Assembly: GCA_049976805.1 (NCBI GenBank)
Contig: JBMFHN010000001.1
Location: 1,265 to 65,264 of the forward strand
Reading direction: 5' to 3'
DNA length: 64,000 nucleotides
Origin: Terracidiphilus sp.
GTDB lineage: Bacteria > Acidobacteriota > Terriglobia > Terriglobales > Acidobacteriaceae
Shown: positions 1 to 28,787 of the stretch, piece by piece
Layout of the letters: each line of letters begins with the position of its first letter
Numbering within the stretch: position 1 is the stretch's first letter
Notes under the pieces: model-generated
What the model was told of the DNA's origin: nothing
Database searches by the model: none
Seen by the model: the letters and a program-made list of their open reading frames with translations, nothing else
Made by a program: the position numbers and the translations under genes

Positions 1-1157
1 TAGTCATCCACGTCGTGTGTGGATCCGGCAAACATGTTGTCGTAATTCGGTTCGGCGGCATAGCCCGAGAAGATGTAGTCGGTGCCAGGCAGGAACTGCA
101 TCAGCATGCGCGCCGTGTTGCGCTCGATCGAATGGGTGAACGTCTGGTCGTTTCCCGAAGCCACTTCCAGGTTCATCAGCACGGTACAGACATTTTCCGC
201 CAACACCGTCTTGATGCCCGCCGGAACGGAGCCAGGAACGCCGATGACACTGATGGAACCATTCTGCAGCCCCTGGACTCCAGCGCCCTTGGTGATCATG
301 ATGCAGCGGATTTCCAGATAGAGCATCGACTTGCCTTCCGCATAGCCCATCTGCACTTCCGAACCCGTGCCCGAGGTAAAGCGCATCTTGAGGCCGCGGG
401 AAGCATAGGCCGAAGCCAGAAAAGCCTTCGACCAGGGCGTGTCGTCGCCGTCCACAAACACCTGCTCGGTTCCATACACGGATACCGTCTCGGCGTAGTG
501 GGTCAGCCCGCGCATTCCCATGCTCAGTTCCAGTGCTTCTTCGACTGCGCACTGGGCGAGAACTCCCGGGCGTCCGGTCTGTCCGCCCACAAGCAGAGCC
601 ATGGCGTTCATGGGAGCGTAGCGAACCACGCCAACCGTGGTTTCAATTTCAGCAAAGCCTCGGTAGGCAGCCTCGGCCGCGTCTGCGGCCAGCAGCGGAG
701 CCGAGTCTTTCAGATTCGTTACGTGAGCCTGATTCATGGGCGTCTTGCGGGAGCGCAGCTTCTGCATCGCCATCATCAGTTCCACAACATTCAGCTCACG
801 GAGGATGGCGACGATTTTCGCCGGTGACAGGCCAACCGACAGGCGGACCAGCTCCGCGCGCGGCACGTTGATGTCCACCAGCATGCGCGCAAACTTCACG
901 CAGTCGATGGCCATCGCTTCTTCAGCAACCGTCTTGTCAATGCAGTGATCGGCAATGAAGGTATCGATCAGATCGAAGTCTTCACGCGGCTTTCCGTCCA
1001 GCTCGACCACCACGCCGTTTTCGATCCTGATGCTGGGCTGGGGGTCATTCGGGCTGTCCATGGCGACCAGTCCCACATCGACCCATTCCTTGATGAATCC
1101 GTCCTTGTTGACCGGTCGGTCGGCAAGCACTTGGAAACGCTTCTGTCTTTTCGCCAT
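1..1157 (-). CDS. pduC: B12-dependent diol/glycerol dehydratase large subunit (PduC-like); C-terminal part lies beyond the window edge
   Basis: I translated the minus strand from the ATG at 1157, which has AAGGAGG 6 nt upstream. It reads MAKRQKRFQVLADRPVNKDGFIKEWVDVGLVAMDSPNDPQPSI...GDDTPWSKAFLASAYASRGLKMRFTSGTGSEVQMGYAEGKSMLYLE...PNYDNMFAGS. This is nearly colinear with enterobacterial PduC as I remember it. It is absent from the ORF track because the frame stays open to the window edge. Confidence 0.9.
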   Translation of the reverse strand, partial: MAKRQKRFQVLADRPVNKDGFIKEWVDVGLVAMDSPNDPQPSIRIENGVVVELDGKPREDFDLIDTFIADHCIDKTVAEEAMAIDCVKFARMLVDINVPRAELVRLSVGLSPAKIVAILRELNVVELMMAMQKLRSRKTPMNQAHVTNLKDSAPLLAADAAEAAYRGFAEIETTVGVVRYAPMNAMALLVGGQTGRPGVLAQCAVEEALELSMGMRGLTHYAETVSVYGTEQVFVDGDDTPWSKAFLASAYASRGLKMRFTSGTGSEVQMGYAEGKSMLYLEIRCIMITKGAGVQGLQNGSISVIGVPGSVPAGIKTVLAENVCTVLMNLEVASGNDQTFTHSIERNTARMLMQFLPGTDYIFSGYAAEPNYDNMFAGSTHDVDD

Positions 1158-1168
1158 TGCAGACCTCC

Positions 1169-1975
1169 TTAGATGTACGGTGTTCCGAGTGACTTCGGCG
1201 TTTCTCCCCACCCGCAAAGAAGCTTGTTACCCACTTCGCGGCCGGAGATCACAGCCTGCCGCACGGCGCCCGAGTCCCCCGTGATCCAGATGAAGACTTC
1301 GTTGCTGAGGCTGGTGTTCTTCTTCGGAGTTCCGAGGCCCAGCACCTCGACATCAGCAGCCTTGACCGCGGTGTCGATCATCAACATGCCGATGACGGCC
1401 GGAGCGCCGAGAATCAGGCCAAAAGCCCTGCCCTCGGGAACGCCGAAGGCCTTGCTCAGAACCTTGCTGGCGCGAGCCGTGTACTGGTTTTCGGTGTATC
1501 CCTGGTTGTTCGCGTACACATCGCCGAAATATTTGTGCAGGCTTCCCAGGGTCACTTCCACGGCGCGGCGGGCGTCGGAGACGTCCTCAGCGCCAAAGAT
1601 GATCAAGTTGCCGTGGCCGGCTCCGCCCTTGGTATCTCTCGGCATTTCGATCAGGATGACTTCGGTGTTGGTGGCCTTGATCGCTTCATCGGCCGCCATC
1701 AGTTGCGGACCTGCTCCCACACGTCCACCGATCACGCCGATCGATCGGTACTTGGTGTCGAAACCAAACAACTGATGAATCGCCGGATCAAGGTTCGCAA
1801 TCACGATGCCCTGCGTATCGCCGTCCGCAACGCCGATATACTCCGTGAGATGCGTCAGGTCGGAAGCGACAGCCTTAGCCTCCGGGGGCGCGCTCGTAGC
1901 GGCTGCAGGTGCCGCACTCGCCCGCTTCATGACTTCCTGCAAAACTTTGTTGATCAAATTTTCTGACTCTGACAT
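1169..1975 (-). CDS. pduB: BMC-T tandem-domain microcompartment shell protein (PduB-like)
   Basis: 268 aa. Motifs LTEYIGVADGDTQGIVIANLD, YRSIGVIGGRVGAGPQLMAADEAIKATNTEV, PRDTKGGAGHG and ITGDSGAVRQAV match PduB along its full length. It ends 12 nt before the pduC start. Confidence 0.9.
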   Translation of the reverse strand: MSESENLINKVLQEVMKRASAAPAAATSAPPEAKAVASDLTHLTEYIGVADGDTQGIVIANLDPAIHQLFGFDTKYRSIGVIGGRVGAGPQLMAADEAIKATNTEVILIEMPRDTKGGAGHGNLIIFGAEDVSDARRAVEVTLGSLHKYFGDVYANNQGYTENQYTARASKVLSKAFGVPEGRAFGLILGAPAVIGMLMIDTAVKAADVEVLGLGTPKKNTSLSNEVFIWITGDSGAVRQAVISGREVGNKLLCGWGETPKSLGTPYI

Positions 1976-2027
1976 CGATCATTCCTCCACGTGATATCCG
2001 ATTACGCGGGTAATCCGTCGCGGTTCG

Positions 2028-2321
2028 CTATATAGCCTCGGGGGTGGCGGGCAAAATCTTCTCCACATCCATGTGCGGCCTCGGAATCACGTGCACCGAA
2101 ACCACTTCGCCAACTTTGGCGGCAGCGGCGCTTCCAGCATCGGTCGCGGCCTTCACCGCGCCCACATCGCCGCGGACAAATACGGTGACCAGGCCGGCGC
2201 CAATCTTCGTCTGCCCGACCAGAACCACATTTGCGGCCTTGACCATCGCATCGGCTGCTTCAATGCTTGCGACCAAGCCGCGCGTTTCGATCAGTCCCAA
2301 CGCTTCTTTTTCCTTTGCCAT
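2028..2321 (-). CDS. pduA: BMC-H hexameric microcompartment shell protein (PduA/EutM-like)
   Basis: 97 aa, [31 protein letters not shown]...[17 protein letters not shown]. This is the canonical BMC domain. The order A-B-C matches pduABC. Confidence 0.9.
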
Positions 2322-2439
2322 CTGACCTTCTCCTTGGTGACGGTTGTTTGCATTTAGAGCGAAGGCAAACGGCTACCTCTCCATCTGCCCCAGACCGCAG
2401 CTCTTCCTGTGTCGAGCTACGGGTATCCGGCCCCTTGAA

Positions 2440-2455
2440 TGCACGCAAGGCGCCA
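2440..2455 (-). promoter_or_regulatory. Candidate sigma54 -24/-12 promoter for the BMC operon
   Basis: The minus strand reads TGGCGCcttgcGTGCA against the consensus TGGCAC-N5-TTGCW. GG/GC spacing is correct. It sits about 120 nt upstream of the pduA ATG, with a sigma54 activator gene immediately upstream. Confidence 0.35.
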
Positions 2456-2551
2456 CAAGAAGATGCCCCCCTCCTTTTTCCCGCAACCTTGCTGTCTTCT
2501 TGCAGATGCGCAAAAGATTTCCACCGGCGGCAGCGCGCCGGGACCTGTCCG

Positions 2552-2591
2552 TGTCAGGTTTTTTGACAGGAGTTGACAGCGAACTTCGTCA
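2552..2591. promoter_or_regulatory. Two adjacent inverted repeats, a candidate enhancer (UAS) for the PocR-type sigma54 activator
   Basis: TGTCA-N7-TGACA at 2552-2568 and TGAC-N10-GTCA at 2574-2591. They lie about 100-150 nt upstream of the candidate -24/-12 element on the pduA side. Confidence 0.3.
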
Positions 2592-2876
2592 GCAGGCTGC
2601 TCAAAAGATCTGCCTGCTTCCGTTCTTGAGGATCGGGGATGAAGAGTCGGCATCGCACCCCGCGGTGGTGTGGGGATTCGCATGGAGGAGCGGAAGACTG
2701 CGTGCCGGAACAAGCGCCTGAAAGTGCGCGGAAGCGGACGAAAAACGATCCTCCTCTTTCCCTTTCATCCTGCGCCGCTCGTTCACCGAACGGAGCAGGA
2801 TGAAAGTTCAGGATCAGGACCGCCTGGAATTTCTACCGATAGGGAGTCGTACGGGAGGCTCCGCTGTTTTTCGCGC

Positions 2877-5027
2877 TCAGGCCTGCTGCCGCGGAATTCC
2901 CAGTCTTTTCATGCGGTACAGCAGCGTCGTGCGGGGAATTCCCAGTCGCGAAGCCGCTCCATCCCGCCCGCTCAGCACCCAGTTGGTTTCATGCAAGATC
3001 TGTTCGATATGATTGCGTTCCATCTCGAAAAGGGTTCCGCGCGGCTGAGGCTGCCTGGCCGGTTTCTCCGTGGGCGGTAGTTTCGCCTGTCCCAGTTCCG
3101 CAAACGGCGAGAGCAGGATATTTCCCGGAGAAAGGATGACCGCTCTCTGGATCAGATTCTGCATTTCACGAATATTTCCCGGCCAGTGGTAGCGTGTCAG
3201 CTGTTCCATCACGCTGGCGGGAATCTCCTCGATCTTGCGATGCATCTTGCGGGTGTACTCAGCGACAAAATGCCGCACCAGCAAGGGAATATCCTCTGTT
3301 CGTTCGCGCAATGAAGGCAGGTGAATGGGGAAAACATTCAAACGGTAAAACAGATCTGCCCGGAACTGGTTATCCAGCATCATGCTTTCCAGATCCCGAT
3401 TGGTTGCCGCAACCAGGCGAACGTCCACCTTGATCGGCCGGGTGCTTCCCAGCCTTTCAAATTCCTGTTCCTGCAAGACCCGGAGCAGCTTGGGTTGCAA
3501 TTCCGGAGGAATGTCGCCCACTTCATCCAGAAACAGCGTTCCTCCGTTGGCCAGCTCAAAGCGCCCGATCTTCCGGGTCGTCGCTCCGGTAAACGCCCCC
3601 TTTTCGTGACCAAAAAGCTCACTTTCCAAAAGGGTTGCGGGGATGGCCGCGCAGCTCATCTTCACAAACATCATGTCGCGACGCCGGCTTCGATTGTGGA
3701 TCTCGCGCGCCACCAGCTCCTTGCCCGTTCCGGTCTCTCCGCGGATCAGCACCGTCGAATCGGTCTTGGCGACATTGGCAATGAGCTCAATGGCCTTGCG
3801 GATGGAGTGGCTGTCGCCGAGAATATGTTCCGCCTCCTGGCTGGCCTGGATTTCATTCGTCAGATACAGGTTTTCGCCCACCAGCCGCTCACTGGACCGG
3901 CTCAACTGCTGATACTGCAGCGCATTCTCCATGGCGATCGCCACCTGGCGAGCGACCTGCGTCAGAAAATTCATGTCGTGCTCGGAGAAAAACTCCTTGC
4001 GCCGGTCGCTCAGATGCAGCACGGCGAGTGTGCGGCCGGCTCCCCGCACGGGGATAAAGCACCCGGAATGAAATCCCTCACTTCGATTGATGCTCTGCAC
4101 GTGCGGGTTGGGCCCTTCGGGGGGATTCCCGTAGCGATACGGCTTGCCGGTGGCAAAGGCAATTCCCGGACCAGAGCCTTCAATTTCCATCACCACGCCT
4201 TCGCGGAGAAACCCGTTGCTGGTGGGAAAATCGAGCCCTCGAATGCGGAATCGCCGGGCATCGGCATCGGGCATCGACATGCACACGGAATCGCATTGCA
4301 TGGCATGGCGAACACTTGCGGGAATCAGATGGAAAAGCTCTCCCAGGTCCAGCTTTGACACCACTGCGTTGTTGACGTCGAGCAGCAATTTGAGTCGCTC
4401 CTGGCTTTCCCGCAACGCGATTTCCGCCTGCTTCCGCTCCGCGATGTGCAGCGACTGCTGCAGATTCTGGTAGGCCCGCTGGGACAACTGGTTGGCAAAG
4501 ATGAAGACCAGGTTGGCGATTTCCTTGAACTGCTCCAGCGACATGGTGGGAACTTCCTGCAGCGCCTGACGGAACTCTTCCTCGTCGGCCCCGATCTCCC
4601 GCGCGTAACGGAGCATCTGCGCCTCGTCGTTCAGTTCGTTCTTCACCTGTCCGATCAGCCAATTGCCCACATGCTGGCCGCCCACGGTGATGCTGGCGCC
4701 GGCGTCCCACAATCCTCCACTCATGCAAATCTGAATAATCGGCCCCTGATCGTTCTGTCTGCCGATGATCGAGTCGGAATGAAAGCAATTCATCCGGCCT
4801 TTTTCCGTTTTTCGCACAATATCATTACATAAACGGCAGAAATTGCTGTAGTTACATACGGGAGTTCCATCGGGAAGCGTGATAATCGACGCGACATGGG
4901 TGGCAATCGCAAAAGCGTCTTGAATCTTTTGCAACTCTTCGACACTGAACAAGTCGGTCAGGGAGATTCTCGGGAATATCTTTTTCCCCTCGGATTTCTC
5001 TTCCTTGGCTTTGGACGCTGTGAGCAT
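2877..5027 (-). CDS. Sigma54-dependent transcriptional activator with PocR-like sensor, GAF, AAA+ and Fis-type HTH domains
   Basis: N-terminal stretch [31 protein letters not shown]...NFCRLC...GRMNCFHSD...[29 protein letters not shown] looks like a PocR sensory domain. A GAF-like middle region follows. The AAA+ core has GETGTGKE and the GAFTGA loop, and the C terminus has an HTH ([13 protein letters not shown]). The track ORF starts at 5165, but I prefer the ATG at 5027 because AAGGAGGA lies upstream of it. Confidence 0.85.
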
Positions 5028-5325
5028 CTCCAATTTGGGTATCCTCCTTGCCGGGTTCGGCCATTCCGCCCCCTTGCTGTGCACCCGGATCACCCGCCCG
5101 GAGAACGCACAACATGATGACATACGATTCCTGTCCACTGTCAAGCAGTGTCGAAAAGTTGACATTCATGCAGTGTGTTGCCAACTGGAACCGCACTTGC
5201 CTTGGCCCATCCCCGAAGAGGCGTCAGCGCGGGGACTTCGAAGGGCGATGCGGAGATCGACAACGGGCCGAAGATGGAAGTCTGCAAGGGTCGAACCAGA
5301 ATCAGGGCAGCCGTTCCTGTAGAGT

Positions 5326-7500
<2,175 letters not shown>

Positions 7501-15028: not shown

Positions 15029-16534
15029 ATGCCCCGAGTTATTGAAGTCACAGAGCTCGCGCTTCGCGACGCGCATCAGAGTTTGTTCGCAACCCGGATG
15101 GCCCTGGACGACATGATCCCGGTTTGCGAAGACATCGACAATGCCGGCTATTGGTCGGTGGAATGCTGGGGAGGAGCAACCTTCGATTCCTGCATTCGCT
15201 TTTTGAATGAAGACCCCTGGGAGCGGCTGCGCACTTTCCGCAAGCTGATGCCCAAAAGCCGCCTGCAGATGCTGCTGCGCGGCCAGAACCTGCTGGGATA
15301 CCGGCATTACGAAGACGGAGTTGTGGAACGGTTTGTGGAGAAGGCCGCTGCGAACGGGATGGACGTCTTCCGTGTCTTTGACGCCCTGAACGACGTGCGC
15401 AACCTGAAGACCAGCATTGCCGCGGTCAAGAAGACCGGCAAGCACGCGCAGGGCACCATCTGTTACACCGTCAGCCCGCTGCACACCGTCGATGCATTTG
15501 TGGAGATGGCCGCCCAGTTGCAGGAGATGGGATGCGATTCGATCTGCATCAAGGATATGGCCGCGCTGCTCAAGCCGCAGCCCGCGTATGACCTGGTCAA
15601 GGGCATCAAGAAGAGATGCGGCAAGGAGATGCCGGTGCATGTCCACGTGCATGCCACGACCGGCGTTACCCTGGTTTCCCTGATGAAGGCGATCGAGGCC
15701 GGCTGCGACATCGTGGACACGGCGGTCAGCTCCATGTCTCTCGGACCGGGGCATAATCCGACGGAAAGCCTGGTCGAGCTGCTGGAAGGAACCGGTTTTG
15801 AGACGCGCCTTGATCTGGAAAGGATTGCGCACGTATCGAAGCACTTTGCCACGATTCGTCCGCGCTATCGCGAGTTCTTCAGCGAAAACATGGGCGTGGA
15901 TACGGCGATCTTCAAGAGCCAGATTCCGGGTGGCATGATCTCCAACATGGAAAGCCAGCTCAAAGGACAGGGCGCGGGCGACCGTCTGCAGGAGGTTCTG
16001 GCGGAGGTGCCGAATGTCCGCAGGGATAGCGGGTATCCTCCCTTGGTCACGCCCTCCAGCCAGATTGTCGGCTCGCAGGCCGTCTTCAATGTGCTGATGG
16101 GCAAGTACAAGGTGCTCACCGGAGAGTTTTCCGATCTGATGCTGGGTTACTACGGCAGCACGATCGGCGAGAAGAACGCCGAGGTGCTCAAACAGGCCGA
16201 GGCTCATGCGAAAAAACCCGCGATTACCTGCCGTCCCGCGGACCTGCTGAAGCCGGAGTGGGAGAATCTGAGCGTCGCGGCGAAGGCGCTCGAAGGCAAC
16301 AATGGATCGGACGAGGATGTTCTGACCTACGCCATGTTCCCGCAGGTGGCGCCGAAGTTCTTCAAGACGCGTCCGGAAGGCCGCAAGAATCTGGGCAAGG
16401 ACCCAGCCAGAGCCAAGGCCGCAGAATCGAAACAGCAGGCCGGCAGCGGCGGAAAACAACTGAGCGCCAAGGTGAACTACGTCATCACGCTCAACGGCCA
16501 GGAGCACCGGGTAACCGTGGCTCCGACAGACTAA
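15029..16534 (+). CDS. Methylmalonyl-CoA carboxyltransferase 5S subunit (pyruvate/oxaloacetate carboxyltransferase, no biotinyl domain)
   Basis: ELALRDAHQSLFATRMA, GYWSVECWGGATFDSCIRFLNEDPWERLRTFRKLMP and SQIPGGMISNMESQL. It is very close over its full length to the Propionibacterium transcarboxylase 5S sequence as I recall it. The C terminus lacks an AMKM biotin motif. Confidence 0.9.
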   Translation: MPRVIEVTELALRDAHQSLFATRMALDDMIPVCEDIDNAGYWSVECWGGATFDSCIRFLNEDPWERLRTFRKLMPKSRLQMLLRGQNLLGYRHYEDGVVERFVEKAAANGMDVFRVFDALNDVRNLKTSIAAVKKTGKHAQGTICYTVSPLHTVDAFVEMAAQLQEMGCDSICIKDMAALLKPQPAYDLVKGIKKRCGKEMPVHVHVHATTGVTLVSLMKAIEAGCDIVDTAVSSMSLGPGHNPTESLVELLEGTGFETRLDLERIAHVSKHFATIRPRYREFFSENMGVDTAIFKSQIPGGMISNMESQLKGQGAGDRLQEVLAEVPNVRRDSGYPPLVTPSSQIVGSQAVFNVLMGKYKVLTGEFSDLMLGYYGSTIGEKNAEVLKQAEAHAKKPAITCRPADLLKPEWENLSVAAKALEGNNGSDEDVLTYAMFPQVAPKFFKTRPEGRKNLGKDPARAKAAESKQQAGSGGKQLSAKVNYVITLNGQEHRVTVAPTD

Positions 16535-16567
16535 AACAGATTCACAGCGGCAGTTTCAGGAGCAGGG

Positions 16568-18145
16568 ATGGCTAAGGCTAAACAAGCAGAGAGTCCGAAG
16601 AAGACGATGGCCGACAAGATTTCCGGTCTGAAAGCGAAGCGGGCCGAGCTTGAACTCGGCGGCGGCGAGGAACGCATCAAGAAACAGCACGAGGGCGGCA
16701 AGCTCACGGCGAGGGAGCGGGTTGCCCTGCTGGCGGATCCCGGCAGTTTCCAGGAGATGGGACTTTTCGCCACCCATCGCGCGACCTTTTTCGGAATGGC
16801 CGGCAAGCAGATGCCGGCCGATGGCGTGGTGACCGGGTGCGCAAACGTGGACGGACGCCAGGTGCATCTGGCCAGCCAGGACTTCACCGTGGCGGGCGGA
16901 GCGGCCGGCGAGACGCACAGCGACAAAGTGGTTGACATGATGCGGTTGTCGCTCAAGACAGGGAGCCCGTTCGTCTTTATCAACGACTCGGGCGGCGCCC
17001 GCGTCCAGGAGGGCATCGACAGCCTGGCCGGATACGCCCGCGTCTTTTATAACAACGTGATGCTGTCCGGATCGGTGCCGCAGATTTCGATCATCTGCGG
17101 ACCCTGCGCCGGGGGCGCCGTGTACAGCCCGGCGCTGACCGACTTTATCATCCAGACCGAGCAGGCGCGGATGTTCATCACCGGACCCCTGGTGATCAAG
17201 CAGGTCACCGGCGAGGTGGTTACCGCCGAGGAACTGGGCGGACCGCACGCGCACATGGAGAAATCGGGCGTGATTCATCTGGTTGCCCGCGACGACCAGG
17301 ACGCGCTTTACCTTTGCCGGCGGCTGCTCAGCTTCATGCCCTCGAACAATCTGGAAGATCCGCCGCGCGCGCCCTACAATCTGCCGATCGACTCCGATCC
17401 GGAGTTGAACGAGATTGTCCCGGTCGATCCCAAGATCGCCTACGATGTGCGCCAGGTGATCACGCGCGTTCTCGATTATCAGGATTTCTTCGAGATCCAG
17501 TCTGGCTACGCGACCAACGTGGTCATCGGCTTCGGGCGCCTGCAGGGCCGTCCGGTGGGCATTATTGCCAGCCAGCCCTGTGTGCTCTCCGGCGTGCTGG
17601 ACATCAACGCCTCGGACAAGGCCGCGCGGTTTGTCCGCTTCTGCAATGCCTTCAACATTCCTCTGGTCACCTTCGTTGATGTGCCGGGATTTCTTCCCGG
17701 GGTCGATCAGGAGAGTGGCGGCATCATCCGCCACGGCGCCAAGCTGCTGTTTGCCTACTCGGCGGCGACGGTTCCAAAGGTCACCGTGGTTCTGCGCAAA
17801 GCCTACGGCGGCGCGTATATCGCGATGTGCAGCAAGGACCTGGGCGCGGACCGGGTGTTGGCATGGCCATCGGCCGAAATCGCGGTGATGGGCGCCGAGG
17901 GCGCAGCGGAAATCGTTTTCCGGCGCGAGATCGACGCGGCCGAGGACAAGGCCAGCCGCCGTCAGGAACTGGTCACCGAGTATCGGGAGACGTTTTCCAA
18001 CCCCTTTGTCGCGGCCGGCCGGCGGCTGGTGGACGACATCATCGAGCCGGCCGAAACCAGGAAATATCTGGTCGCGGCACTGGAATCCTTGCACACCAAG
18101 CGCGAGTTGCGTCCCACAAAGAAGCATGGATTGATTCCTTTATGA
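16568..18145 (+). CDS. Methylmalonyl-CoA carboxyltransferase 12S subunit / propionyl-CoA carboxylase beta family
   Basis: Crotonase-like carboxyltransferase: GKLTARERVALLADPGSF, INDSGGARVQEG, GPCAGGAVYSPALTDF, VDVPGFLPG. Confidence 0.9.
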   Translation: MAKAKQAESPKKTMADKISGLKAKRAELELGGGEERIKKQHEGGKLTARERVALLADPGSFQEMGLFATHRATFFGMAGKQMPADGVVTGCANVDGRQVHLASQDFTVAGGAAGETHSDKVVDMMRLSLKTGSPFVFINDSGGARVQEGIDSLAGYARVFYNNVMLSGSVPQISIICGPCAGGAVYSPALTDFIIQTEQARMFITGPLVIKQVTGEVVTAEELGGPHAHMEKSGVIHLVARDDQDALYLCRRLLSFMPSNNLEDPPRAPYNLPIDSDPELNEIVPVDPKIAYDVRQVITRVLDYQDFFEIQSGYATNVVIGFGRLQGRPVGIIASQPCVLSGVLDINASDKAARFVRFCNAFNIPLVTFVDVPGFLPGVDQESGGIIRHGAKLLFAYSAATVPKVTVVLRKAYGGAYIAMCSKDLGADRVLAWPSAEIAVMGAEGAAEIVFRREIDAAEDKASRRQELVTEYRETFSNPFVAAGRRLVDDIIEPAETRKYLVAALESLHTKRELRPTKKHGLIPL

Positions 18146-18158
18146 GGAGGAGCTGCGC

Positions 18159-18503
18159 GTGACATCAAATGTGACGGATTTGGTTCGGGCCGTTTCCGAA
18201 CAGCAACAAGCAACGGACCGCCAGTTGAACGCGCTGACCAGCGCGCTCCAGACATTGGAGGCGCGCGTGGCCGAGTTGAGCCTGCGTCTGGAGGCTGCAA
18301 CGCAGGCGGTCCAAAAGGAGAAAGACGAGGTCACGCCGGAGGTTTTGGCGATGATGGCTGCGGTCGTCACGGCCTATCTGGGCAAGAAGGTCCGCATCCG
18401 CTCGGCGAAGATGCTCCAGTCGCCTTACGAGGTGGTGAATCCATGGTCCCAGCAGGGCAGGGTGTTCGTGCAGGCCTCGCATAACCTGCGACCGAGGGGC
18501 TGA
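18159..18503 (+). CDS. Small subunit-like protein, OadG/MmdD-related C-terminus with a coiled-coil N-terminus and no TM helix
   Basis: 114 aa. The C-terminal TPEVLAMMAAVVTAYLGKKVRIRS...NPWSQQGR resembles the tail of decarboxylase gamma/delta subunits. It lies between the 12S and biotin-carrier genes. The family assignment is from memory only. Confidence 0.5.
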   Translation: MTSNVTDLVRAVSEQQQATDRQLNALTSALQTLEARVAELSLRLEAATQAVQKEKDEVTPEVLAMMAAVVTAYLGKKVRIRSAKMLQSPYEVVNPWSQQGRVFVQASHNLRPRG

Positions 18504-18539
18504 GGCACGGAAAGGCCAATCGAGAAAGGGAGGGGTAAT

Positions 18540-18941
18540 TTGAAGCTGAAGATTTCAATGGACGGCAAGAGTTACGAGGCCGAGGTTGAGGTCCTCGAAG
18601 ATGACGCGATTCCGCACCAGCCGAATTATGGACCGTACATGGCGATGCCCACGACCATCCAATCAGCGCCGGTGGCCAGCGCGCCCGCACCGGCGCCGGC
18701 AAAAGCGGCGGAGGAGTTCGCTGACGAAGGCAAGGTCTGCCGCAGTCCGGTTACAGGCGTCGTGATCAAGGTGAATATCGAGCCGGGGCAGACGATTCAA
18801 TCGGACGATCTGCTCATGGTGCTTGAAGCCATGAAGATGGAGACCAATGTCACCGCGTGCGGCAGTGGAAAAGTGAAGAATGTGCGCGTGGCGCAGGGCG
18901 ACTCGGTAAAGGTCAATCAGGTGGTTGTTGAATTTGAATGA
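18540..18941 (+). CDS. Biotin carboxyl carrier protein (transcarboxylase 1.3S-like)
   Basis: 133 aa with the biotinylation motif LEAMKMET. TTG start. Confidence 0.9.
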   Translation: MKLKISMDGKSYEAEVEVLEDDAIPHQPNYGPYMAMPTTIQSAPVASAPAPAPAKAAEEFADEGKVCRSPVTGVVIKVNIEPGQTIQSDDLLMVLEAMKMETNVTACGSGKVKNVRVAQGDSVKVNQVVVEFE

Positions 18942-18942
18942 T

Positions 18943-18977
18943 CCAGAGCCGGCCGGTGGCTGGCTCCGGGTTCTTTT
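18943..18977 (+). terminator. Rho-independent terminator-like hairpin after the biotin carrier gene
   Basis: CCAGAGCCGGCC-GGT-GGCTGGCTCCGG, a 12-bp stem with one mismatch and one G-U pair, followed by GTTCTTTT. Confidence 0.4.
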
Positions 18978-18992
18978 GGGGAAGGGGTTACG

Positions 18993-19469
18993 ATGAGCTG
19001 TGTCGATGAGGATGTAAAGCAAGTTCCGGGAATCAAATTCGTGGATCACGTCGCCATCTCCGTCAAGCAGGGCGAACTGGAAGGCCAGGTGAAGGCTTAC
19101 GGGATGCTGGGCTTTCGCGAAGTTCACCGCGAAGATGTTCTGGGGGGCGATCAGGTGCGGGAAGTCCTGCTGCGGGTCGGCGACGGCCCTAACCTGGTGC
19201 AGTTGCTCGAGCCCCTGACGGCGGATTCGCCGGTGCAGAAATTGATCGAGAAGAACGGCGGCAGGGGCGGACTGGCACACATCGCTTTTCGCGTCGAAAA
19301 CGCCCGGGAAGCCTTCGACGCGATGAAAGCCAGAGGATTCCAGATCATCGACAAGTCTCCCCGCAAAGGCTCGCGAGGAACCACGGTCTTTTTCGTTCAT
19401 CCCAAATCACAGGTCGAGAATCCCTTTGGAATTCTGATCGAAATCGTCGAAGACCCCGAGGGCAAGTGA
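18993..19469 (+). CDS. mce: Methylmalonyl-CoA epimerase (VOC/glyoxalase fold)
   Basis: DHVAISV...LLEPLTADSPVQKLIEKNGGRGGLAHIAFRVEN...GILIEIVE, and its position directly upstream of the mutase genes. Confidence 0.85.
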   Translation: MSCVDEDVKQVPGIKFVDHVAISVKQGELEGQVKAYGMLGFREVHREDVLGGDQVREVLLRVGDGPNLVQLLEPLTADSPVQKLIEKNGGRGGLAHIAFRVENAREAFDAMKARGFQIIDKSPRKGSRGTTVFFVHPKSQVENPFGILIEIVEDPEGK

Positions 19470-19474
19470 GGAAC

Positions 19475-21223
19475 ATGGCTACCGATCATCTGCTCCAGGA
19501 ATTTCCTCCCGTCAGCACCGAAATGTGGGAAGAGGTGATCCGCAAGGATCTGAAGGGCGCCGACTACGCCCGGAAGCTGATCTGGAAGGCGGAGGAAGGG
19601 CTCGCAGTCAAGCCTTATTATCGCGCCGAAGACATTGCCGGGCTGGAATATCTGGCTGCCGCGCCCGGCACCTACCCCTATGCGCGCGGCGCGCGCGCGG
19701 CCGGTGGCTGGCGCATCCGCGAAGAGATCGATGCGGCGAGTCCCGAAGAGGCCAACCGGGCGGCGCGCAACGCCATCCAGGCCGGAGCCGAGGAGATTGC
19801 GTTTACCCAGGCCGACATTCAGAGTGCCGCGGAACTGGAAACGCTTCTCGCCCAGCTGGACGAGATTCCCGTGCATTTCGAGCAGGCAGACGAACCGCTG
19901 CTGCGCCTGCTGATGGAGAGGCTGAAACGGAAACCGAGGACGGCGATGGTTTCGACCGGATGGAATCCTTTGGCTCATCCGGATTTCGCGGCGGAAGTCG
20001 CCGCTTCGGCGCTGCCCTGGTTCATTCCCTTCACCCTGCATGGCGAAGAGTTCGAGGAATCGGGCGCAACCGCCGTTCAAGAGGTCGGATTCACGCTGGC
20101 CGCCGGGGTTGATTATCTGGCCGCCCTCGAAGACCGCAAGGTCGATGCCGATCGCGCCGCCGCAGCGGTCGCCTTTTCCTTTGCCATGGGCACCAGCTAC
20201 TTCTTTCAGATTGCCAAGCTGCGCGCCTTCCGCATGGCGTGGGCGCAGGCCGCAGCCAGCTTCGGCGGCAGCAGGGAGGCCGCGAAAGCGCGCATCTACG
20301 CCCGCACCTCGCGGTGGAGCGAGACCCTCTACGATCCGCACGTCAACATTCTGCGCGCGACGACGGAAGCCATGGCGGCGGTTCTGGGCGGCGCAGATTC
20401 GGTCACGGTCGCGCCCTTCGATGAATGTTACAGGTCGCCCGACGAGGCCAGCCGCCGTCTGGCCCGCAATACGCAGATCATTCTGAAGCAGGAAGCCCTG
20501 CTCGCGCGGGTTGCCGATCCCGGCGGCGGGGCGTATTGCCTGGAGGCGATCACCGATTTTCTGGCCCGCGCAGGCTGGAAATCGATGCAGGAGATCGAAG
20601 CCGCAGGCGGCTATGCCGAGGCCAAGGCAGCAGGAACGATCGACAAGGAGCTCGCGCAGTCGCAGGCTGCCAAGGAAAAGGCCGTGTCGAGCCGCCGCCG
20701 CGCATTCACCGGGACCAACCAGCATCCGAATCTGCTGGAAAAGGCTCTCGATCGCATCGATGTTGCGCGCCTCGAAAGCCGGCAGCGCGGCGCCCGGATG
20801 TACGAGCAGCTTCGCCTGCGCACCGAGCGCAGCGCGGCCAAAACCGGCAGGACGCCGCACATTCTGCTCGCCGAGATCGGCGACGCCAGGATGCGCGCGG
20901 CGCGCTCCGGCTTTGCTGCCGACTTCTTTGGCTGCGCGGGATTCGATCTGAAGACCGGGCGTTTTTCGAGCGTCGAAGAAATTGCCACCGCCGAGGCGGA
21001 CCTGATCGTGCTCTGCAGCTCCGATGCGGAGTATCCGGGGCTGGCAGCGGAACTGATTCCGAAACTGAAGGCGCGGGGGCGCGAGACCCCGGTGATCGTG
21101 GCCGGAGCGCCGGAAACCACCGCTCAACTCGAGGCGGCCGGTGTCGCCGATTTTGTTCACGTGCGCAGCAATCCGATCGAACTTCTTGCCAAATGGCAGC
21201 AACGACTGGGGATCAAGGACTAA
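19475..21223 (+). CDS. mutA: Methylmalonyl-CoA mutase small (beta) subunit
   Basis: Mutase-fold N-terminal region ([14 protein letters not shown]) and a degenerate B12-domain C-terminus. It ends 2 nt before mutB. The track start GTG at 19466 is an alternative. Confidence 0.85.
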
Positions 21224-21225
21224 CA

Positions 21226-23366
21226 TGCGTCCAGACTTTTCAAAGATCGACTTCATGCCCGCGGTGGAAGAAACGAAGGGGAGCGAGAGCCAGGAATGGC
21301 TTTCCCCGGAGCACATTCCCGTCAAGAGCGCTTACACGAGCGAAGACCTGAATGGACTCGAACATCTCGAATACACAGCGGGCATTCCGCCCTACCTGCG
21401 CGGGCCCTACAGCACCATGTACGTCATGCGGCCCTGGACAATTCGTCAATACGCCGGCTTTTCGACCGCCGAAGAGTCCAATGCCTTCTACCGCCGCAAT
21501 CTGGCTGCAGGGCAGAAGGGGCTTTCGGTGGCCTTTGACCTGGCCACACACCGCGGCTACGACTCCGATCACGAGCGGGTGACGGGCGACGTGGGCAAGG
21601 CCGGTGTGGCCATCGACTCGATCCTGGACATGAAGATCCTCTTCGATCAGATTCCTCTGGGACAAATGTCGGTGTCGATGACCATGAACGGCGCGGTGCT
21701 GCCGATCATGGCGTTTTATATCGTCGCCGCCGAAGAGCAGGGCGTGACCACGGAGCAGCTGAACGGAACCATTCAGAACGACATTCTGAAAGAGTTCATG
21801 GTCCGTAACACCTATATCTATCCGCCGGCGGGCTCGATGCGGATCATCGGCGACATCTTCCGCTACTGCGCGGCGAAGATGCCCAAGTTCAACTGCATCA
21901 GCGTGAGCGGCTATCACATGCAGGAGGCCGGGGCCACGGCCGACATCGAGCTGGCCTACACGCTGGCCGACGGGCTCGAATATCTGCGCACCGGAGTCAA
22001 GGCGGGCCTGGACATTGATGATTTTGCGCCCCGTATCTCCTTCTTCTGGGGCATCGGCATGAACCATTTCATGGAGATTGCCAAGATGCGTGCCGCGCGC
22101 ATGATCTGGGCCAAGCTGGTGAAGACCTTCAATCCCCGGAATCCCAAGTCGCTGGCGCTGCGCACCCACTCGCAGACCTCGGGCTGGAGCCTGACGGCGC
22201 AGGATCCGTACAACAACGTGGTGCGCACCGCGGTCGAGGCGCTGGCCGCGGCTCTGGGGCACACCCAGTCGCTGCACACCAACGCGCTCGACGAGGCTCT
22301 GGCGCTGCCGACGGACTTTTCCGCGCGCATCGCGCGCAACACCCAGATTTATCTGCAGGAAGAGACCGACATCACGCGCATCGTCGATCCCTGGGCCGGC
22401 TCCTACTATGTGGAGCGGCTGACGCACGAGCTGATGCACGGAGCCTGGGCGCTGATCGAAGAGGTCGAGTCCCTGGGCGGCATGGCCAAGGCGATCGAGA
22501 CCGGCGTTCCCAAGATGAGAATCGAAGAGGCGGCAGCACGCAAGCAGGCCCGCATCGATTCGGGCCGGGACGTGATCGTGGGCGTCAATGCCTATCCTTC
22601 CCCCGAAGAACCGATGATTCCGGTGCTCGACATCGACAACGCCGCGGTGCGCGAGGCACAGATCAAGAGGCTTGCCCGGCTGAAGAGCGAGCGCGACGCC
22701 AAGGCGGTGCGCGCATCGCTCGATCAGCTGGAAAAATGCGCTTCGACGGGTGAGGGCAACCTGCTGGAGTGCGCGGTGGATGCGGCGCGCAAGCGGGCCA
22801 CGCTGGGCGAGATCTCCTCGGCTCTTGAAAAAGTCTGGGGCCGTTATGAGGCCACCACGCGTACCATTGCGGGAGTTTATTCGATGGAGAGTGCGAGCGC
22901 CGAGGAGTTCCAGAAGGCGCAGAAGATGGTTGCGGAGTTTGAGAAGGCCGAAGGCCGGCGTCCCCGCATTCTGGTGGCGAAGATGGGACAGGATGGCCAC
23001 GACCGCGGCTCGAAGGTCATCGCCACAGCCTTTGCCGATATCGGCTTCGACGTGGACATCGGCCCTCTGTTCCAGACGCCGCGCGAGGTTGCGCGCCATG
23101 CCGTTGAGAACGATGTGCATGTGGTGGGCGCCTCGTCGCTGGCCGCCGGCCACAAGACGCTGGTTCCGCAGTTGATTGCCGAGTTGCGCGCGCTGGGACG
23201 GGAAGACATCCTGGTGGTCGTCGGCGGCGTCATTCCGCCCCAGGACTACGAATTCCTTTATCAGGCGGGAGCCGTCGGCGTTTTCGGTCCGGGAACAGTG
23301 ATCCCGGTCTGCGCGCAGCGGATTCTCGACATTCTGAATGGCGGTCCGGCGGGAGGACGTTCCTGA
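21226..23366 (+). CDS. mutB: Methylmalonyl-CoA mutase large (alpha) subunit, B12-binding
   Basis: [53 protein letters not shown], and a C-terminal B12 domain with [10 protein letters not shown] (the DxHxxG motif). I prefer the ATG at 21226 to the track start at 21141. Confidence 0.95.
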
Positions 23367-24503
23367 TTGACCGATTCTGGCCAAAGCGCCCTTCATGTCC
23401 TTCCCGGATGTGCGGTGCCCGAGCCGCCGCGGAAGTTGATTCCCCGCGCGCAGAGCCGGCGCCGGACTCTTTCACGGGAGCAATGGGTCGAGGGGATCCG
23501 CAGCGGTCAACGCTCCATTCTGGCCCAGGCCATTACCCTCATCGAGAGCACGCGCACGGCGGACCGGGAGCTGGCCGAGCAAATCGTCGACGATTGCCTT
23601 CCCCATAGCGGGAACTCCATTCGCGTTGGTATTACCGGGGTTCCCGGGGCAGGCAAAAGCAGCCTGATCGAAAGACTGGGCATGTTCCTGATTGGCGAAC
23701 AGGGACAGAAGATTGCCGTGCTGGCGATCGATCCCAGCAGCCAGATCTCGGGCGGAAGCATTCTCGGCGACAAGACCCGCATGCAAACGCTGGCATCAAG
23801 CGAGTCGGCTTTTATTCGTCCCAGTCCCTCGCGCTGCTCGTTGGGTGGTGTGGCGCAGCGTACCCGCGAGGCCATGCTGCTGTGTGAGGCGGCCGGGTAC
23901 GGCACCATTCTGATCGAGACGGTGGGCGTGGGCCAATCCGAAATTGCCGTTCACGACATGGTGGATTTTTTTCTGCTGATTACGCTGGCCGGGGCCGGAG
24001 ATGAGCTGCAGGGCATGAAACGCGGCGTGATGGAGATGGCCGACGTCGTGGCGGTCAACAAGGCCGATGGGGAGAATCTGGCCGCTGCCGAGCGGGCGCG
24101 GAACGTGGCCGAGAATGCTCTGCACTATCTTCCTGCCTCACCCTCCGGCTGGACGCCGCGCGCGCTGACCTGTTCAGCACAGACCGGCGAGGGAATCACA
24201 GATTTATGGAGTGCGGTGATCGAGCGCATCCGGCTGGCCCGGGCCAACGGCTGGTTTGATTCGAACCGGCGGCGTCAGGCCCGGCGGTGGATGCAGGAGA
24301 TCATTGAGGAAGGGCTGCGGCGGCAATTCGAGACGCACCCGGTCATCCGGGAGCGCAGAAAGGCTCTCGAACAGGATGTGACCGAAGGCCGCATATCGTC
24401 GTTTCGGGCCGCGCGCCTGCTGCTCGAAATGTATGCCGGCCCGGGCTCGATATCCCATACCCCGGATTCATCCCAAGGCGCCGATCGATCCGTTTCGGGC
24501 TGA
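23367..24503 (+). CDS. meaB: Methylmalonyl-CoA mutase-associated GTPase MeaB/ArgK
   Basis: GITGVPGAGKSSLIE, IETVGVGQSE and NKADG G-protein motifs. The exact start is uncertain (TTG at 23367 or a downstream GTG). Confidence 0.9.
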   Translation: MTDSGQSALHVLPGCAVPEPPRKLIPRAQSRRRTLSREQWVEGIRSGQRSILAQAITLIESTRTADRELAEQIVDDCLPHSGNSIRVGITGVPGAGKSSLIERLGMFLIGEQGQKIAVLAIDPSSQISGGSILGDKTRMQTLASSESAFIRPSPSRCSLGGVAQRTREAMLLCEAAGYGTILIETVGVGQSEIAVHDMVDFFLLITLAGAGDELQGMKRGVMEMADVVAVNKADGENLAAAERARNVAENALHYLPASPSGWTPRALTCSAQTGEGITDLWSAVIERIRLARANGWFDSNRRRQARRWMQEIIEEGLRRQFETHPVIRERRKALEQDVTEGRISSFRAARLLLEMYAGPGSISHTPDSSQGADRSVSG

Positions 24504-25630: not shown

Positions 25631-26482
25631 TCAGGGGGTCAATTTCCTGAAGGCAATCAATGGGCAGTTCTTGCAGATGTCGGCGCCCGGGAATCCGTCG
25701 CCGGGACGGATGAGGGAACTGCTCCCCTGACTTTCGATGCGCTCCATCAAGCGCCGACATACGTCTCCGATTCGAGATCCGGGGATGATCACATTCACTT
25801 CGCTGCGTTCGGTTTTCCCGGCGCTGTAGCTGCCCGAACAGGCCGGAAGCAGATTGAAACTCTGGTTCAGGTGAGTCCACACATTGCCGCCGCAGGCCGA
25901 GGAATTCATGGTGATGGAGGTCTGCAGAGGATGAGTGTCGGTTGCGGCCATGTAGTCGACCGCCAGGTGGTAGGCCTGCATGGGGTCGCAGTAAAAATGG
26001 ACCGTATCAGGGCCGCCAAAGACGCCGGCTTTGGCAAGCGGCGCCACGGCCACAGCCAGCAACCCCGCCGGCAGCCGCGGCTTGGACAGGATAAAACGCG
26101 TGGATTGATCGAGATCTCTGGCATACTTGGCCTGACTTTCGATCTCGCTTGCATCCAGTTCCTTCCAGCCAAAACAATACCGGGCGTGCTTGCAGCTCAG
26201 GTCCTTCATCTCGCCATAGATCACCTTCCCCTGCATGCGGGCAGCGATCTCCCACTGGCAAAAGGTGATCGGCTTGAGCGGCGTTTCAATCTCATCGCAG
26301 CTCTTCTTGAAGTCGTCGATTTCCGCCGGATCGAAGAAAAATCTTACCGCGATGGGATCGTGGTAAAGACGCAGTTCACGCATCAGCAAGACCTGCATCT
26401 CGCCGTACGAGATTGCATCGGTGCTGCGTTTGAATTCCGCCGGAGAGCCCGGGCTGATCGGCGGGAAGGTTTCCCGGCTCAT
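25631..26482 (-). CDS. DUF169 family protein
   Basis: 283 aa: PIAVRFFFD, FCQWEIAARMQGKVIY, CFGW, ACGGNVW. This overall pattern matches DUF169 (COG2043) as I recall it. Its start overlaps the upstream stop as ATGA. Confidence 0.75.
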   Translation of the reverse strand: MSRETFPPISPGSPAEFKRSTDAISYGEMQVLLMRELRLYHDPIAVRFFFDPAEIDDFKKSCDEIETPLKPITFCQWEIAARMQGKVIYGEMKDLSCKHARYCFGWKELDASEIESQAKYARDLDQSTRFILSKPRLPAGLLAVAVAPLAKAGVFGGPDTVHFYCDPMQAYHLAVDYMAATDTHPLQTSITMNSSACGGNVWTHLNQSFNLLPACSGSYSAGKTERSEVNVIIPGSRIGDVCRRLMERIESQGSSSLIRPGDGFPGADICKNCPLIAFRKLTP

Positions 26483-26838: not shown

Positions 26839-26924
26839 GTTTCTTCTCCACAAAGAAGCAAGCACGCCGGGTGCCAACTTTCGTCGCGCAGAGAGATCGC
26901 TTCATCGATCAGATTGCAAAGAGT

Positions 26925-28037: not shown

Positions 28038-28081
28038 AGTCGCAATCTTCATCGTTGTTCATTCAAGAAGGAGGAATTCAA

Positions 28082-28414: not shown

Positions 28415-28480
28415 GAAGGGGAGAACGGAAACATGGACCTGGAGGAGGCGGCCGGGCAGTCGTACGGTAAAGCAGCGGTT

Positions 28481-28775: not shown

Positions 28776-28787
28776 GGAGGGAATCCG

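Follow-up and report, generated by a model that had tools for sequence, protein, structure and literature searches.

A candidate one-component PocR–sigma-54 activator encoded upstream of a propanediol-type microcompartment operon in a Terracidiphilus-like acidobacterium

Introduction

Published regulators of pdu loci pair the PocR sensor domain with one of two outputs. In Salmonella and E. coli, PocR is an AraC-type activator of pdu and cob, and at PDU1D loci the PocR domain belongs to a histidine kinase that is accompanied by a response regulator (Axen 2014, PMC4207490). A two-component system also lies upstream of the pdu cluster of Acetobacterium woodii, where its regulator binds that region (PMC7593272). 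PDU1D loci in which PduAB-CDE-GH is followed by a CsoS1D-like BMC-Tdp protein have been catalogued in Proteobacteria and in a single acidobacterium, in a survey whose main text mentions neither PocR nor sigma factors (Sutter 2021, PMC8217296). Since such a locus is on record for one acidobacterium, the metabolosome is probably already known in the phylum. We found no paper tying a sigma-54 activator to PocR or to pdu.

Results

We analysed a 64,000-nucleotide stretch of DNA (hereafter the window), which an earlier note, made from the letters alone, had read as the edge of a pdu-type operon in a probable acidobacterium. The phylum guess agrees with the GlmS protein, which is 93–94% identical to proteins from Terracidiphilus MAGs and by this measure identifies the host as a Terracidiphilus-like soil acidobacterium. 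Pfam and NCBIfam searches recovered pduA, pduB and pduC with an activator gene upstream of them, all four on the minus strand and in the order that had been claimed. The first gene of the operon encodes a hexameric shell protein of the PduA/EutM type (BMC-H; 2028..2321, 97 amino acids; PF00936, E = 5e-28), which is 90–93% identical to its orthologues and whose top NCBIfam match is EutM, at 129 bits slightly below the cutoff of 133. It is followed by a PduB-type shell protein with tandem BMC domains (BMC-T; 1169..1975, 268 amino acids). This protein exceeds the NCBIfam PduB equivalog cutoff of 173 bits with a score of 375, reaches 351 bits with TIGR04501 and shares 53% identity with E. coli PduB. 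The third gene, pduC (1..1157), runs off the left edge of the window, leaving the N-terminal 385 amino acids of a B12-dependent diol/glycerol dehydratase large subunit. Its Dehydratase_LU match (E = 1e-214) covers profile positions 1–383 of 552, NCBIfam assigns it to the propanediol/glycerol dehydratase large subunit (690 bits), and its identity is 68% with E. coli PduC and 90% with the orthologue at the related locus L085.

The activator gene lies directly 5′ of the genes for BMC-H, PduB and PduCDE at loci L001, L002, L003, L005/L085, L007, L008, L009 and L089. At least five metagenome contigs preserve the regulator–pduABCDE layout unbroken, as does the cultured alphaproteobacterium Telmatospirillum siberiense (L089); the T. 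siberiense activator and that of the window share 65% identity. Orthologous loci contain complete PduC, PduD and PduE, and the full relatives L085 and L089 encode PduGH, a BMC-Tdp shell protein, a BMC-P pentamer (EutN_CcmL), PduO and PduP. L085 also has Aldedh and ADH genes, with cobT, cobS, cobC and cobU after the operon, and T. siberiense additionally encodes Fe-ADH, PTAC and a MIP-family (GlpF/PduF-like) channel. On the window's own contig, genes such as those for PduGH, BMC-Tdp, BMC-P, Aldedh and ADH would lie past the edge; in the relatives, the genes beyond the corresponding point are pdu-like. Our reading, with a probability of roughly 0.78, is that the window covers the promoter-proximal part of a metabolosome operon of the propanediol (PduCDE) type and, with it, a dedicated one-component activator, a putative bacterial enhancer-binding protein.

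The longest open reading frame of the activator gene (2877–5165, minus strand) encodes 762 amino acids; its start at 5165 was rejected because seven orthologues align only from about 45 codons further downstream. Orthologue alignments place the start at TTG 5033 or ATG 5027, giving a gene at 2877..5033 and a protein of about 717 amino acids, and the opening codons of the longer frame appear instead to be a conserved palindromic operator. In the numbering of the 762-residue frame, Pfam detected a full-length PocR domain (PF10114; residues 71–232, profile positions 1–162 of 162, E = 6e-50), a GAF domain (residues 273–413), a complete sigma-54 AAA+ core (Sigma54_activat, PF00158; residues 448–615, E = 5e-73) with its lid (AAA_lid_14) and a C-terminal HTH of the Fis type (HTH_8; residues 714–755, E = 1e-7), with a long helix linking the PocR sensor to the GAF domain. 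The PocR, GAF, AAA+ and HTH parts are those that the earlier note had recognized. The Walker motifs are intact (Walker B, LFLDEVGD) and the segment HEKGAFTGA carries the GAFTGA loop. The Pfam scan revealed no AraC-type HTH in the activator, and its scores against the NCBIfam equivalogs FhlA (501; cutoff, 830) and NifA (382; cutoff, 529) are both below threshold.

The PocR domain is 25% identical to the sensor of E. coli PocR (pairwise E = 8e-9). Structural comparison of its confident AF2 model (pLDDT, 91.5) gave weak matches to ligand-binding domains of GAF- and PAS-like type, pointing to a fold that resembles those of small-molecule binders. The closest relatives of the domain are histidine kinases with PAS or GAF domains (52–67% identity). 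Among the approximately 70 PocR-kinase loci examined, a BMC gene was never found within 10 kb, which makes diol specificity of the activator tentative. Another ligand is possible, if rather doubtful: with architecture and target as proposed, the PocR and/or the GAF domain would respond to glycerol, 3-hydroxypropionaldehyde, propionaldehyde, a cobalamin-related compound, or a redox or energy signal, and the enzyme may then be chiefly a glycerol dehydratase of a reuterin or 1,3-propanediol pathway. The modest identity to the 1,2-propanediol-responsive enterobacterial sensor, the kinase relatives unconnected with BMC loci, the GAF domain as a second ligand site, the placement of PduC only in a propanediol/glycerol family, the channel gene of L089 and the cob genes of L085 would all suit such a signal. 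They have to be weighed against a PDU core that is complete for aldehyde handling (PduP, PduO and the BMC shell, with PTAC and Fe-ADH in L089), the closeness of PduB and PduC to bona fide Pdu proteins, and the usual link between diol substrates and PocR-family domains encoded at BMC loci (Axen 2014, PMC4207490).

We identified a candidate sigma-54 promoter, TGGCGC-CTTGC-GTGCA (2440..2455, minus strand; -24 GG, -12 GC), 134 nt upstream of the pduA ATG. Matches to -24/-12 with up to two mismatches are not above chance in the window (21 versus 31 expected), and a stricter, conserved pattern occurs three times (1 expected), so the promoter call is built on conservation. TGG-N6-GC-N-TGCA is invariant in seven acidobacterial loci, and in all eight activator-bearing loci a TGG-N9-KGC element occurs exactly once in the pduA upstream region, always 132–146 nt off; the T. 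siberiense counterpart is near-canonical and non-palindromic (TGGCAT-N5-TTGCG). A candidate upstream activator sequence (UAS) with nested inverted half-sites, TGTCAA-N4-TGTC-N9-GACA-N2-GACA (2546..2578, minus strand), precedes the -24 element by roughly 110 nt. A TGTC/GACA array is present there in all eight activator-bearing loci, and alignments A1 and A5 show no variation in its half-sites. In the relatives the core of the array is a 16-bp palindrome with an 8-nt spacer, the inner palindrome of the window having a spacer of 9 nt, and the relatives' core TGT-N10-ACA would match the NifA UAS in shape.

The inner palindrome of the relatives has the same pattern as an operator upstream of the activator gene. 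In the window this site (5139..5164, minus strand), a block conserved in alignment A7, comprises TGTCAACTTTTCGACA (5149–5164) followed by a conserved TTGACA hexamer (5139–5144), and TGTC-N8-GACA is found at an equal distance from the activator gene in six acidobacterial loci (the window, L001, L005, L006, L007 and L008). Only two operator sites of the TGTC-N8-GACA type occur in the 64-kb window, and the operator with its TTGACA hexamer suggests that the activator gene is a candidate for autoregulation. At L087, a related acidobacterial pdu locus, neither the sigma-54 element nor the TGTC/GACA array is present upstream of pduA, and the activator gene is absent from the 2.8 kb upstream. L087 thus offers an apparent natural negative control, with the activator and both DNA elements missing together. 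Taken with the conserved promoter, the half-site array and the matching operator, it lends in silico support to the earlier claim that the activator controls the operon.

In L001–L003 the promoter element sits inside a palindrome, TGG-N6-GCATGC-N6-CCA, and matches on both strands. It could thus be part of a palindromic operator (TGG-N9-TGCA) for another regulator, with a sigma-70-type promoter reading the operon and the activator acting on another target, as the chance-level frequency of lone -24/-12 matches in the window and the activator's relatives at 61–64% identity (L010–L012), which have no visible adjacent pdu genes, might also suggest. We consider this improbable: the pduA-directed orientation alone is kept in all loci, the downstream CCA is missing in the window and the T. 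siberiense version lacks the palindrome. Presence of the element also tracks that of the activator gene without exception, and a sigma-70 scan of the pduA upstream region returned no candidate promoter. A tblastn search with E. coli RpoN found no rpoN in the window or in any of the fetched loci; the presence of a sigma-54 factor in the host is suggested only indirectly, by the large number of sigma-54 activators encoded in Terriglobales MAGs. That the activator fusion is a functionless decaying or chimeric gene (pseudogene or assembly artefact), as frameshifts that split it in L001 and L002 could suggest, is largely refuted by intact orthologues and highly implausible: the frame is intact over residues 21–715 of a 716-residue query in the window, L005, L006, L007, L008, L009 and L089, which come from independent samples, the catalytic motifs are kept, many genes of L001 are frameshifted, and L009 carries an intact activator beside PduCDE 100% identical to those of L002, so the split in L002 would reflect misassembly or strain variation.

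Two predicted RNA features flank these elements. Between promoter and pduA, alignments A5 and A6 and RNAalifold predict a 5′ leader of about 105 nt (2322..2430, minus strand) with conserved blocks, two hairpins and a possible anti-Shine–Dalgarno pairing (CUCY with GGAG). Compensatory changes occur in just 2 of its 24 predicted pairs, lending the structure weak support, and the leader has no match in Rfam. Just past the activator stop codon, a strong terminator-like hairpin with a U-run (2746..2825, minus strand) folds at -49.6 kcal/mol (z = -4.5; none of 200 shuffles fold equally well). It lies within an insertion of about 165 nt that is found only in this window in alignment A1, and it was missed by a simple terminator scan.

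Discussion

Building on the domain architecture and synteny observed here, and on the conserved and co-occurring DNA elements, we propose that the N-terminal PocR domain would sense the substrate, most likely 1,2-propanediol by analogy with enterobacterial PocR, with the signal reaching the sigma-54 AAA+ core by way of the long helix and the GAF domain. The Fis-type HTH would bind the inverted TGTC/GACA repeats that precede the -24/-12 promoter of pduA by about 110 nt, and the assembled ring would hydrolyse ATP and open the sigma-54 holoenzyme complex, allowing transcription of pduABCDE and downstream genes. The single palindrome of the same type with TTGACA upstream of the activator gene may serve autoregulation. 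Ligand, site binding, sigma-54 dependence and autoregulation are parts that we infer, and the probability given above applies to the proposal as a whole.

Terriglobales GAF-GAF-sigma54 activators (for example, P0008) share 59% identity with the window activator over its GAF-AAA+-HTH part, and 57% with the T. siberiense copy. The protein may have arisen when PocR replaced the first GAF domain of such an activator; regulator and operon would then have crossed between Alphaproteobacteria and Acidobacteriota as a single cassette. Transfer is suggested by the T. siberiense Pdu proteins, which are nearer to those of L085 than the proteins of the other acidobacterial locus, L087, are (PduC, 87% versus 83% identity).

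Among known systems, enterobacterial PocR shares with the window activator the PF10114 sensor, a pduABCDE neighbour and presumably a response to substrate. The reference locus L090 confirms an AraC-type PocR as the enterobacterial counterpart, but there pocR-pduF diverges from pduABCDE, whereas the activator here is co-directional and directly upstream of pduA. Enterobacterial PocR acts through an AraC HTH at sigma-70 promoters; the window activator has a sigma-54 AAA+ core with a Fis-type HTH, an additional GAF domain and a sensor of only 25% identity, which fits the claim of a different regulatory solution and by domain content places it outside the PocR/AraC protein family. The PocR kinases of PDU1D loci likewise use PocR as sensor, and the kinases L049 and L051 share the PocR-GAF tandem. 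These systems work by phosphorelay, whereas the window activator is one-component, its sensor fused to the transcriptional ATPase and its promoter class probably sigma-54; no adjacent kinase/response-regulator pair of the PDU1D kind was found at the locus, which has the PocR-sigma54 activator instead. The relatives of the window locus share the PDU1D gene order of PduAB-CDE-GH and then BMC-Tdp (Sutter 2021, PMC8217296), and their subtype, judged by the catalogue's description, is probably PDU1D-like. The FhlA/NifA-like GAF-GAF-sigma54 proteins of Terriglobales have the GAFTGA core and HTH_8 in common with the window activator, but carry a first GAF domain in place of PocR, and its target would be a BMC operon. 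PrpR (propionate) and DhaR, a sequence relative in the same family, both recovered as relatives in the NCBIfam search, also gate an AAA+ core for a catabolic operon through an N-terminal ligand sensor, although of another kind, and no activator of the PrpR/DhaR type has been reported to govern a microcompartment locus. With PocR-AraC and PocR-histidine kinase as the published PDU regulators, the window activator represents a third output. Overall, the sequence evidence suggests that a previously undescribed, one-protein PocR-sigma54 regulator switches on the pdu operon, a modest regulatory variation on a well-known system.

A PocR sensor fused to a sigma-54 activator upstream of pduABC

We annotated the minus strand at the left edge of the window with Pfam and NCBIfam profiles, revealing three pdu genes and a large regulator. 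The first 385 residues of PduC, the large subunit of B12-dependent diol/glycerol dehydratase, are encoded at positions 1–1157 on the minus strand (Dehydratase_LU, E = 1e-214, profile positions 1–383 of 552), and the gene continues past the left edge. It is preceded by pduB (1169–1975, minus; 268 aa; 375 bits to the NCBIfam PduB equivalog, cutoff 173) and by a PduA/EutM-type BMC-H shell protein gene (2028–2321, minus; 97 aa), with PduC and PduB sharing 68% and 53% identity with their E. coli counterparts. A 555-bp intergenic region then separates the BMC-H gene from the activator, the longest ORF of which (2877–5165, minus) encodes a PocR domain at residues 71–232 (E = 6e-50), a GAF domain at 273–413, Sigma54_activat at 448–615 (E = 5e-73), AAA_lid_14 and HTH_8 at 714–755. 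The earlier note had claimed exactly this gene set, including the fusion of a PocR-like sensory domain and GAF to a sigma-54 AAA+ core and HTH; all of it is present on the minus strand, and the PocR match covers the full profile length. Its further claim of pdu-like genes beyond the left edge agrees with the full pdu set of two orthologous loci, L085 (acidobacterial) and L089 (Telmatospirillum siberiense).

In the activator translation, the Walker A (GETGTGKE) and Walker B (LFLDEVGD) motifs are intact, as is the GAFTGA loop that contacts sigma-54. The true start lies about 45 codons 3' of the longest-ORF start, where orthologues begin, and a TTG/ATG start at window 5033/5027 is conserved and aligns in seven loci. 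The domain composition shows a one-component enhancer-binding protein with two N-terminal ligand-type domains, which belongs to the sigma-54 activator and PocR-domain families and not to the PocR/AraC protein family. Identity with FhlA or NifA was ruled out, as scores fell under the NCBIfam equivalog cutoffs.

AF2 modelled the PocR domain with confidence (pLDDT 91.5). Foldseek returned weak matches (E ≥ 3.5e-3, TM ≤ 0.44), with resemblance to IclR effector, CodY GAF and DctB sensor domains at the fold level only, and a sequence search of the PDB with the domain found no homologue. A long helix is predicted at residues 164–195 of the modelled N-terminal fragment, a position consistent with the S-helix arrangement reported in proteins whose PocR and GAF sensors precede an NtrC-like AAA+ output (PMC1592074). 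Within the 196-aa N-terminal fragment (window 4440–5027, minus), Cys 64, 67, 81 and 101 are fully or almost fully conserved in 25 PocR domains, and three of the four align with cysteines of E. coli PocR; such conservation may mark a metal or redox site of the sensor.

The neighbour upstream of the activator is a divergently oriented gene for a RecQ-like helicase (5326–7500), and the remaining window genes are ordinary chromosomal content, with GlmS 93–94% identical to Terracidiphilus MAG proteins (Acidobacteriaceae). No rpoN was found in the window or in any comparison locus. A B12-dependent methylmalonyl-CoA module occurs 12–22 kb from the pdu operon (15029–24503, plus), comprising a 5S-type carboxylase subunit (PYC_OADA/HMGL), a 12S carboxyltransferase, a fused methylmalonyl-CoA mutase with B12-binding domain and MeaB, and could channel Pdu-derived propionyl-CoA to succinyl-CoA. 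Another cluster (25631–34638) encodes a DUF169 protein, two CbiA/ParA-type P-loop proteins with 4Fe-4S motifs and two pyridine-nucleotide disulfide oxidoreductases, of which one carries a rhodanese domain at its C-terminus.

Distribution of the activator and its synteny with pdu operons

Searching 5.8 billion proteins with the PocR+GAF half of the activator recovered three close relatives with the full architecture, while the remaining matches covered either the PocR half only (PAS histidine kinases) or the GAF half only (Terriglobales sigma-54 activators). When the whole protein was compared, without a profile, with 1.84 billion cluster representatives, P0121 (64% identity) was the sole PocR-through-HTH cluster among the best 150 matches, which reach down to about 420 bits; other multi-stretch matches that we checked were tandem AAA+ or PAS-GAF proteins. 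A scan of genome contigs yielded only a 42% match to the AAA+ core in a Planctomycetota MAG, and the T. siberiense orthologue was reached via its BMC-Tdp shell protein. Overall, the family spans at least five lineages at about 61–69% mutual identity.

Contig look-ups and a metagenome scan revealed the activator followed by BMC-H, PduB and PduCDE in L001, L002, L003, L005 (the same contig as L085), L007, L008 and L009. Its reading frame is whole in L005–L009 and frameshift-split in L001 (5925–8052) and L002 (786–2866). Broken genes are numerous in L001, suggesting indel errors of assembly, and L009 encodes PduCDE 100% identical to those of L002, yet its activator is intact. The full locus in L085 encodes PduGH reactivase, an extended BMC-H, a CsoS1D-like BMC-Tdp, an actin-fold EutJ-like protein, a BMC-P pentamer, a PduO-type adenosyltransferase, and aldehyde and alcohol dehydrogenases. 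On the 3' side of this operon are cobT (DBI_PRT), cobS, cobC (His_Phos_1) and cobU (17678–20618), reminiscent of the pdu–cob linkage in Salmonella but limited to nucleotide-loop assembly genes. The same arrangement occurs in the alphaproteobacterium T. siberiense, which encodes a 730-aa activator 65% identical to that of the window and additionally an MIP channel, Fe-ADH, two more BMC-H genes and PTAC. The synteny between operon and activator is strict and spans two phyla. Source names suggest that several of the related contigs come from peat or wetland metagenomes.

Three further PocR-GAF-sigma54 members (61–64% identity, from two lineages) were found on incomplete contigs with no pdu genes among the visible neighbours: L010 (5858–7420) and L011 (3603–5120), which end at the 3' side, and L012 (4–1896). 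Upstream in L010 are a divergent gene with weak MFS/TLC transporter matches and TetR, HAD and nucleotidyltransferase genes, a layout identical in L011, and in L012 a convergent ORF of 2892 aa comes after the activator; the 1000 residues of it that we scanned matched no Pfam family. None of these three activators has a sigma-54 element or operator upstream. The nearest PocR domains (52–67% identity) belong to PAS or GAF histidine kinases, including PocR-GAF kinases, and none of about 70 PocR-kinase loci had a BMC gene within 10 kb.

L087 (1–12038) represents the same type of pdu locus in a member of the Acidobacteriaceae and encodes a PduC 83% identical to that of L085. Its operon is preceded by a divergent Fe-ADH gene, a DinB_2 gene and an acetate kinase gene, with no PocR-sigma54 gene in the 2.8 kb examined upstream.

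Candidate promoter, enhancer and operator

We aligned the activator–pduA intergenic region of seven acidobacterial loci (mean column identity 66%), revealing an invariant TGG-N6-GC-N-TGCA. The candidate sigma-54 promoter of the window is TGGCGCCTTGCGTGCA (2455–2440, minus), with GG and GC spaced as in the consensus TGGCAC-N5-TTGCW. One -24/-12 match by itself is not above chance level in the window, and this element is the sole TGG-N9-KGC upstream of pduA in every locus, 132–146 nt before the ATG; T. siberiense carries the candidate TGGCATacgccTTGCG 51 nt before its ATG. The element lies within a palindrome, TGG-N6-GCATGC-N6-CCA, in L001 (8294–8323), L002 (3085–3108) and L003 (2276–2299), so that in L001 and L002 the promoter pattern is matched on both strands. 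The window element lacks the downstream CCA of that palindrome.

About 110 nt upstream of the promoter is an invariant half-site array, TGTCAA-N4-TGTC-N8/9-GACA-N2-GA(C/T) (2578–2546, minus), which we consider a candidate upstream activator sequence; a TGTCGA...TCGACA palindrome occurs at a comparable distance in T. siberiense. The spacer of the inner palindrome is 9 nt in the window compared with 8 nt in relatives, whose inner palindrome (for example, TGTCAACTTTTCGACA in L001) is found again ahead of the activator gene. This second site, a candidate operator, is found at 5164–5149 (minus) in the window and at equal distance to the coding region in L001, L005, L006, L007 and L008, followed immediately by a conserved TTGACA hexamer. 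Only two TGTC-N8-GACA sites occur in the 64-kb window. Sites of the same pattern at the target and at the regulator's own gene are expected of a recognition site for its HTH, and judged from sequence the pairing suggests autoregulation. In the negative control L087, with no adjacent activator, neither the -24/-12 element nor the TGTC/GACA array was present upstream of the operon.

The pduA leader (2322–2430, minus; also in L001, L003, L005, L007, L008 and L009) is more conserved than the enhancer–promoter spacer. Its predicted fold has two hairpins plus a CUCY:GGAG pairing that would occlude the Shine-Dalgarno sequence, with compensatory changes in only 2 of 24 predicted pairs. Rfam returned no family for bases 1–6000 at E ≤ 1, and the leader therefore contains no cobalamin or other known riboswitch, in contrast to the E. 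coli reference locus, where a cobalamin riboswitch lies beside pocR. Directly 3' of the activator stop codon is a hairpin with a U-run (2746–2825, minus; -49.6 kcal/mol, z = -4.5), which was overlooked by a simple terminator scan and recovered by RNA folding. It sits in a ~165-nt insertion missing from orthologous loci and is probably a terminator insulating the activator transcript from pduA.

Origin, proposed mechanism and significance

Domain shuffling among regulators is common. The GAF-AAA+-HTH part of the window activator is 59% identical to Terriglobales GAF-GAF-sigma54 activators, in which the first GAF sits where the activator has its PocR domain, and the T. siberiense activator shares 57% identity with this acidobacterial scaffold. 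The Pdu proteins of T. siberiense are also nearer to those of activator-bearing acidobacterial loci than L087 Pdu proteins are. On these identities, the simplest reading would be that the domains were swapped within Acidobacteriota and that the entire cassette later passed to an alphaproteobacterium.

Mechanistically, the PocR domain would bind the substrate, most probably 1,2-propanediol by analogy with enterobacterial PocR (summarised in PMC7593272), and the signal would be relayed along the long helix after it, lifting inhibition of the AAA+ ring, possibly through the GAF domain, which may be a second input. The ring would then assemble on the enhancer and use ATP to open the sigma-54 promoter complex. 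A bolder and rather doubtful reading is a two-input one-component gate, in which PocR detects a diol, GAF detects a second metabolic signal, and both inputs are needed before the metabolosome is built, carried on a self-contained cassette with its own promoter, enhancer and autoregulatory operator that crossed between Acidobacteriota and Alphaproteobacteria in peat and wetland soils. If true, the BMC regulon would be the first to depend on sigma-54, and the cassette would serve as a portable, diol-responsive sigma-54 expression module.

The activator is a candidate for use as a single-protein diol biosensor or expression switch, and it illustrates how a regulator may be made by a sensor-domain swap onto a lineage-typical scaffold and then move with its operon between phyla. 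Ecologically, the locus suggests that Terracidiphilus-like acidobacteria metabolise 1,2-propanediol. The putative promoter, enhancer and autoregulatory site are all readable from sequence conservation; together with the sensor, a natural negative control and a cultured carrier, T. siberiense, which is a named isolate, they make a system that is unusually complete on paper and therefore directly testable.

Comparison with known regulators of PDU microcompartments

In enterobacteria, PocR is a 305-aa AraC-type protein, and the reference locus is laid out as pocR-pduF / pduABCDE. Loci of the PDU1D subtype are without an enterobacterial-type PocR and have instead a two-component system with a PocR-domain histidine kinase (Axen et al. 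2014, PMC4207490); in Acetobacterium woodii, a two-component system lies upstream of the pdu cluster and its regulator binds that upstream region (PMC7593272). Sutter et al. (2021, PMC8217296) reported PDU1D loci in one acidobacterium and BMC-Tdp in the PDU1D loci of Proteobacteria and that single acidobacterium, with a main text silent on PocR and sigma factors, and a 2025 comparative study of sigma-54 regulons mentions neither pdu, PocR nor microcompartments. We found no literature, including that on microcompartments and Telmatospirillum, linking PocR or pdu to a sigma-54 activator or describing this regulator.

The metabolosome itself is of known type. The earlier note's interpretation, a different regulatory solution for the same metabolosome, is supported by the architecture and synteny of the activator and, as far as conservation can indicate, by the candidate promoter and enhancer and the matching operator. 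The activator gives the PocR sensor at PDU loci a third and previously undescribed output: known substrate control runs through PocR-AraC in enterics and a PocR-histidine kinase in PDU1D, and here the sensor is wired to a sigma-54 enhancer-binding ATPase.
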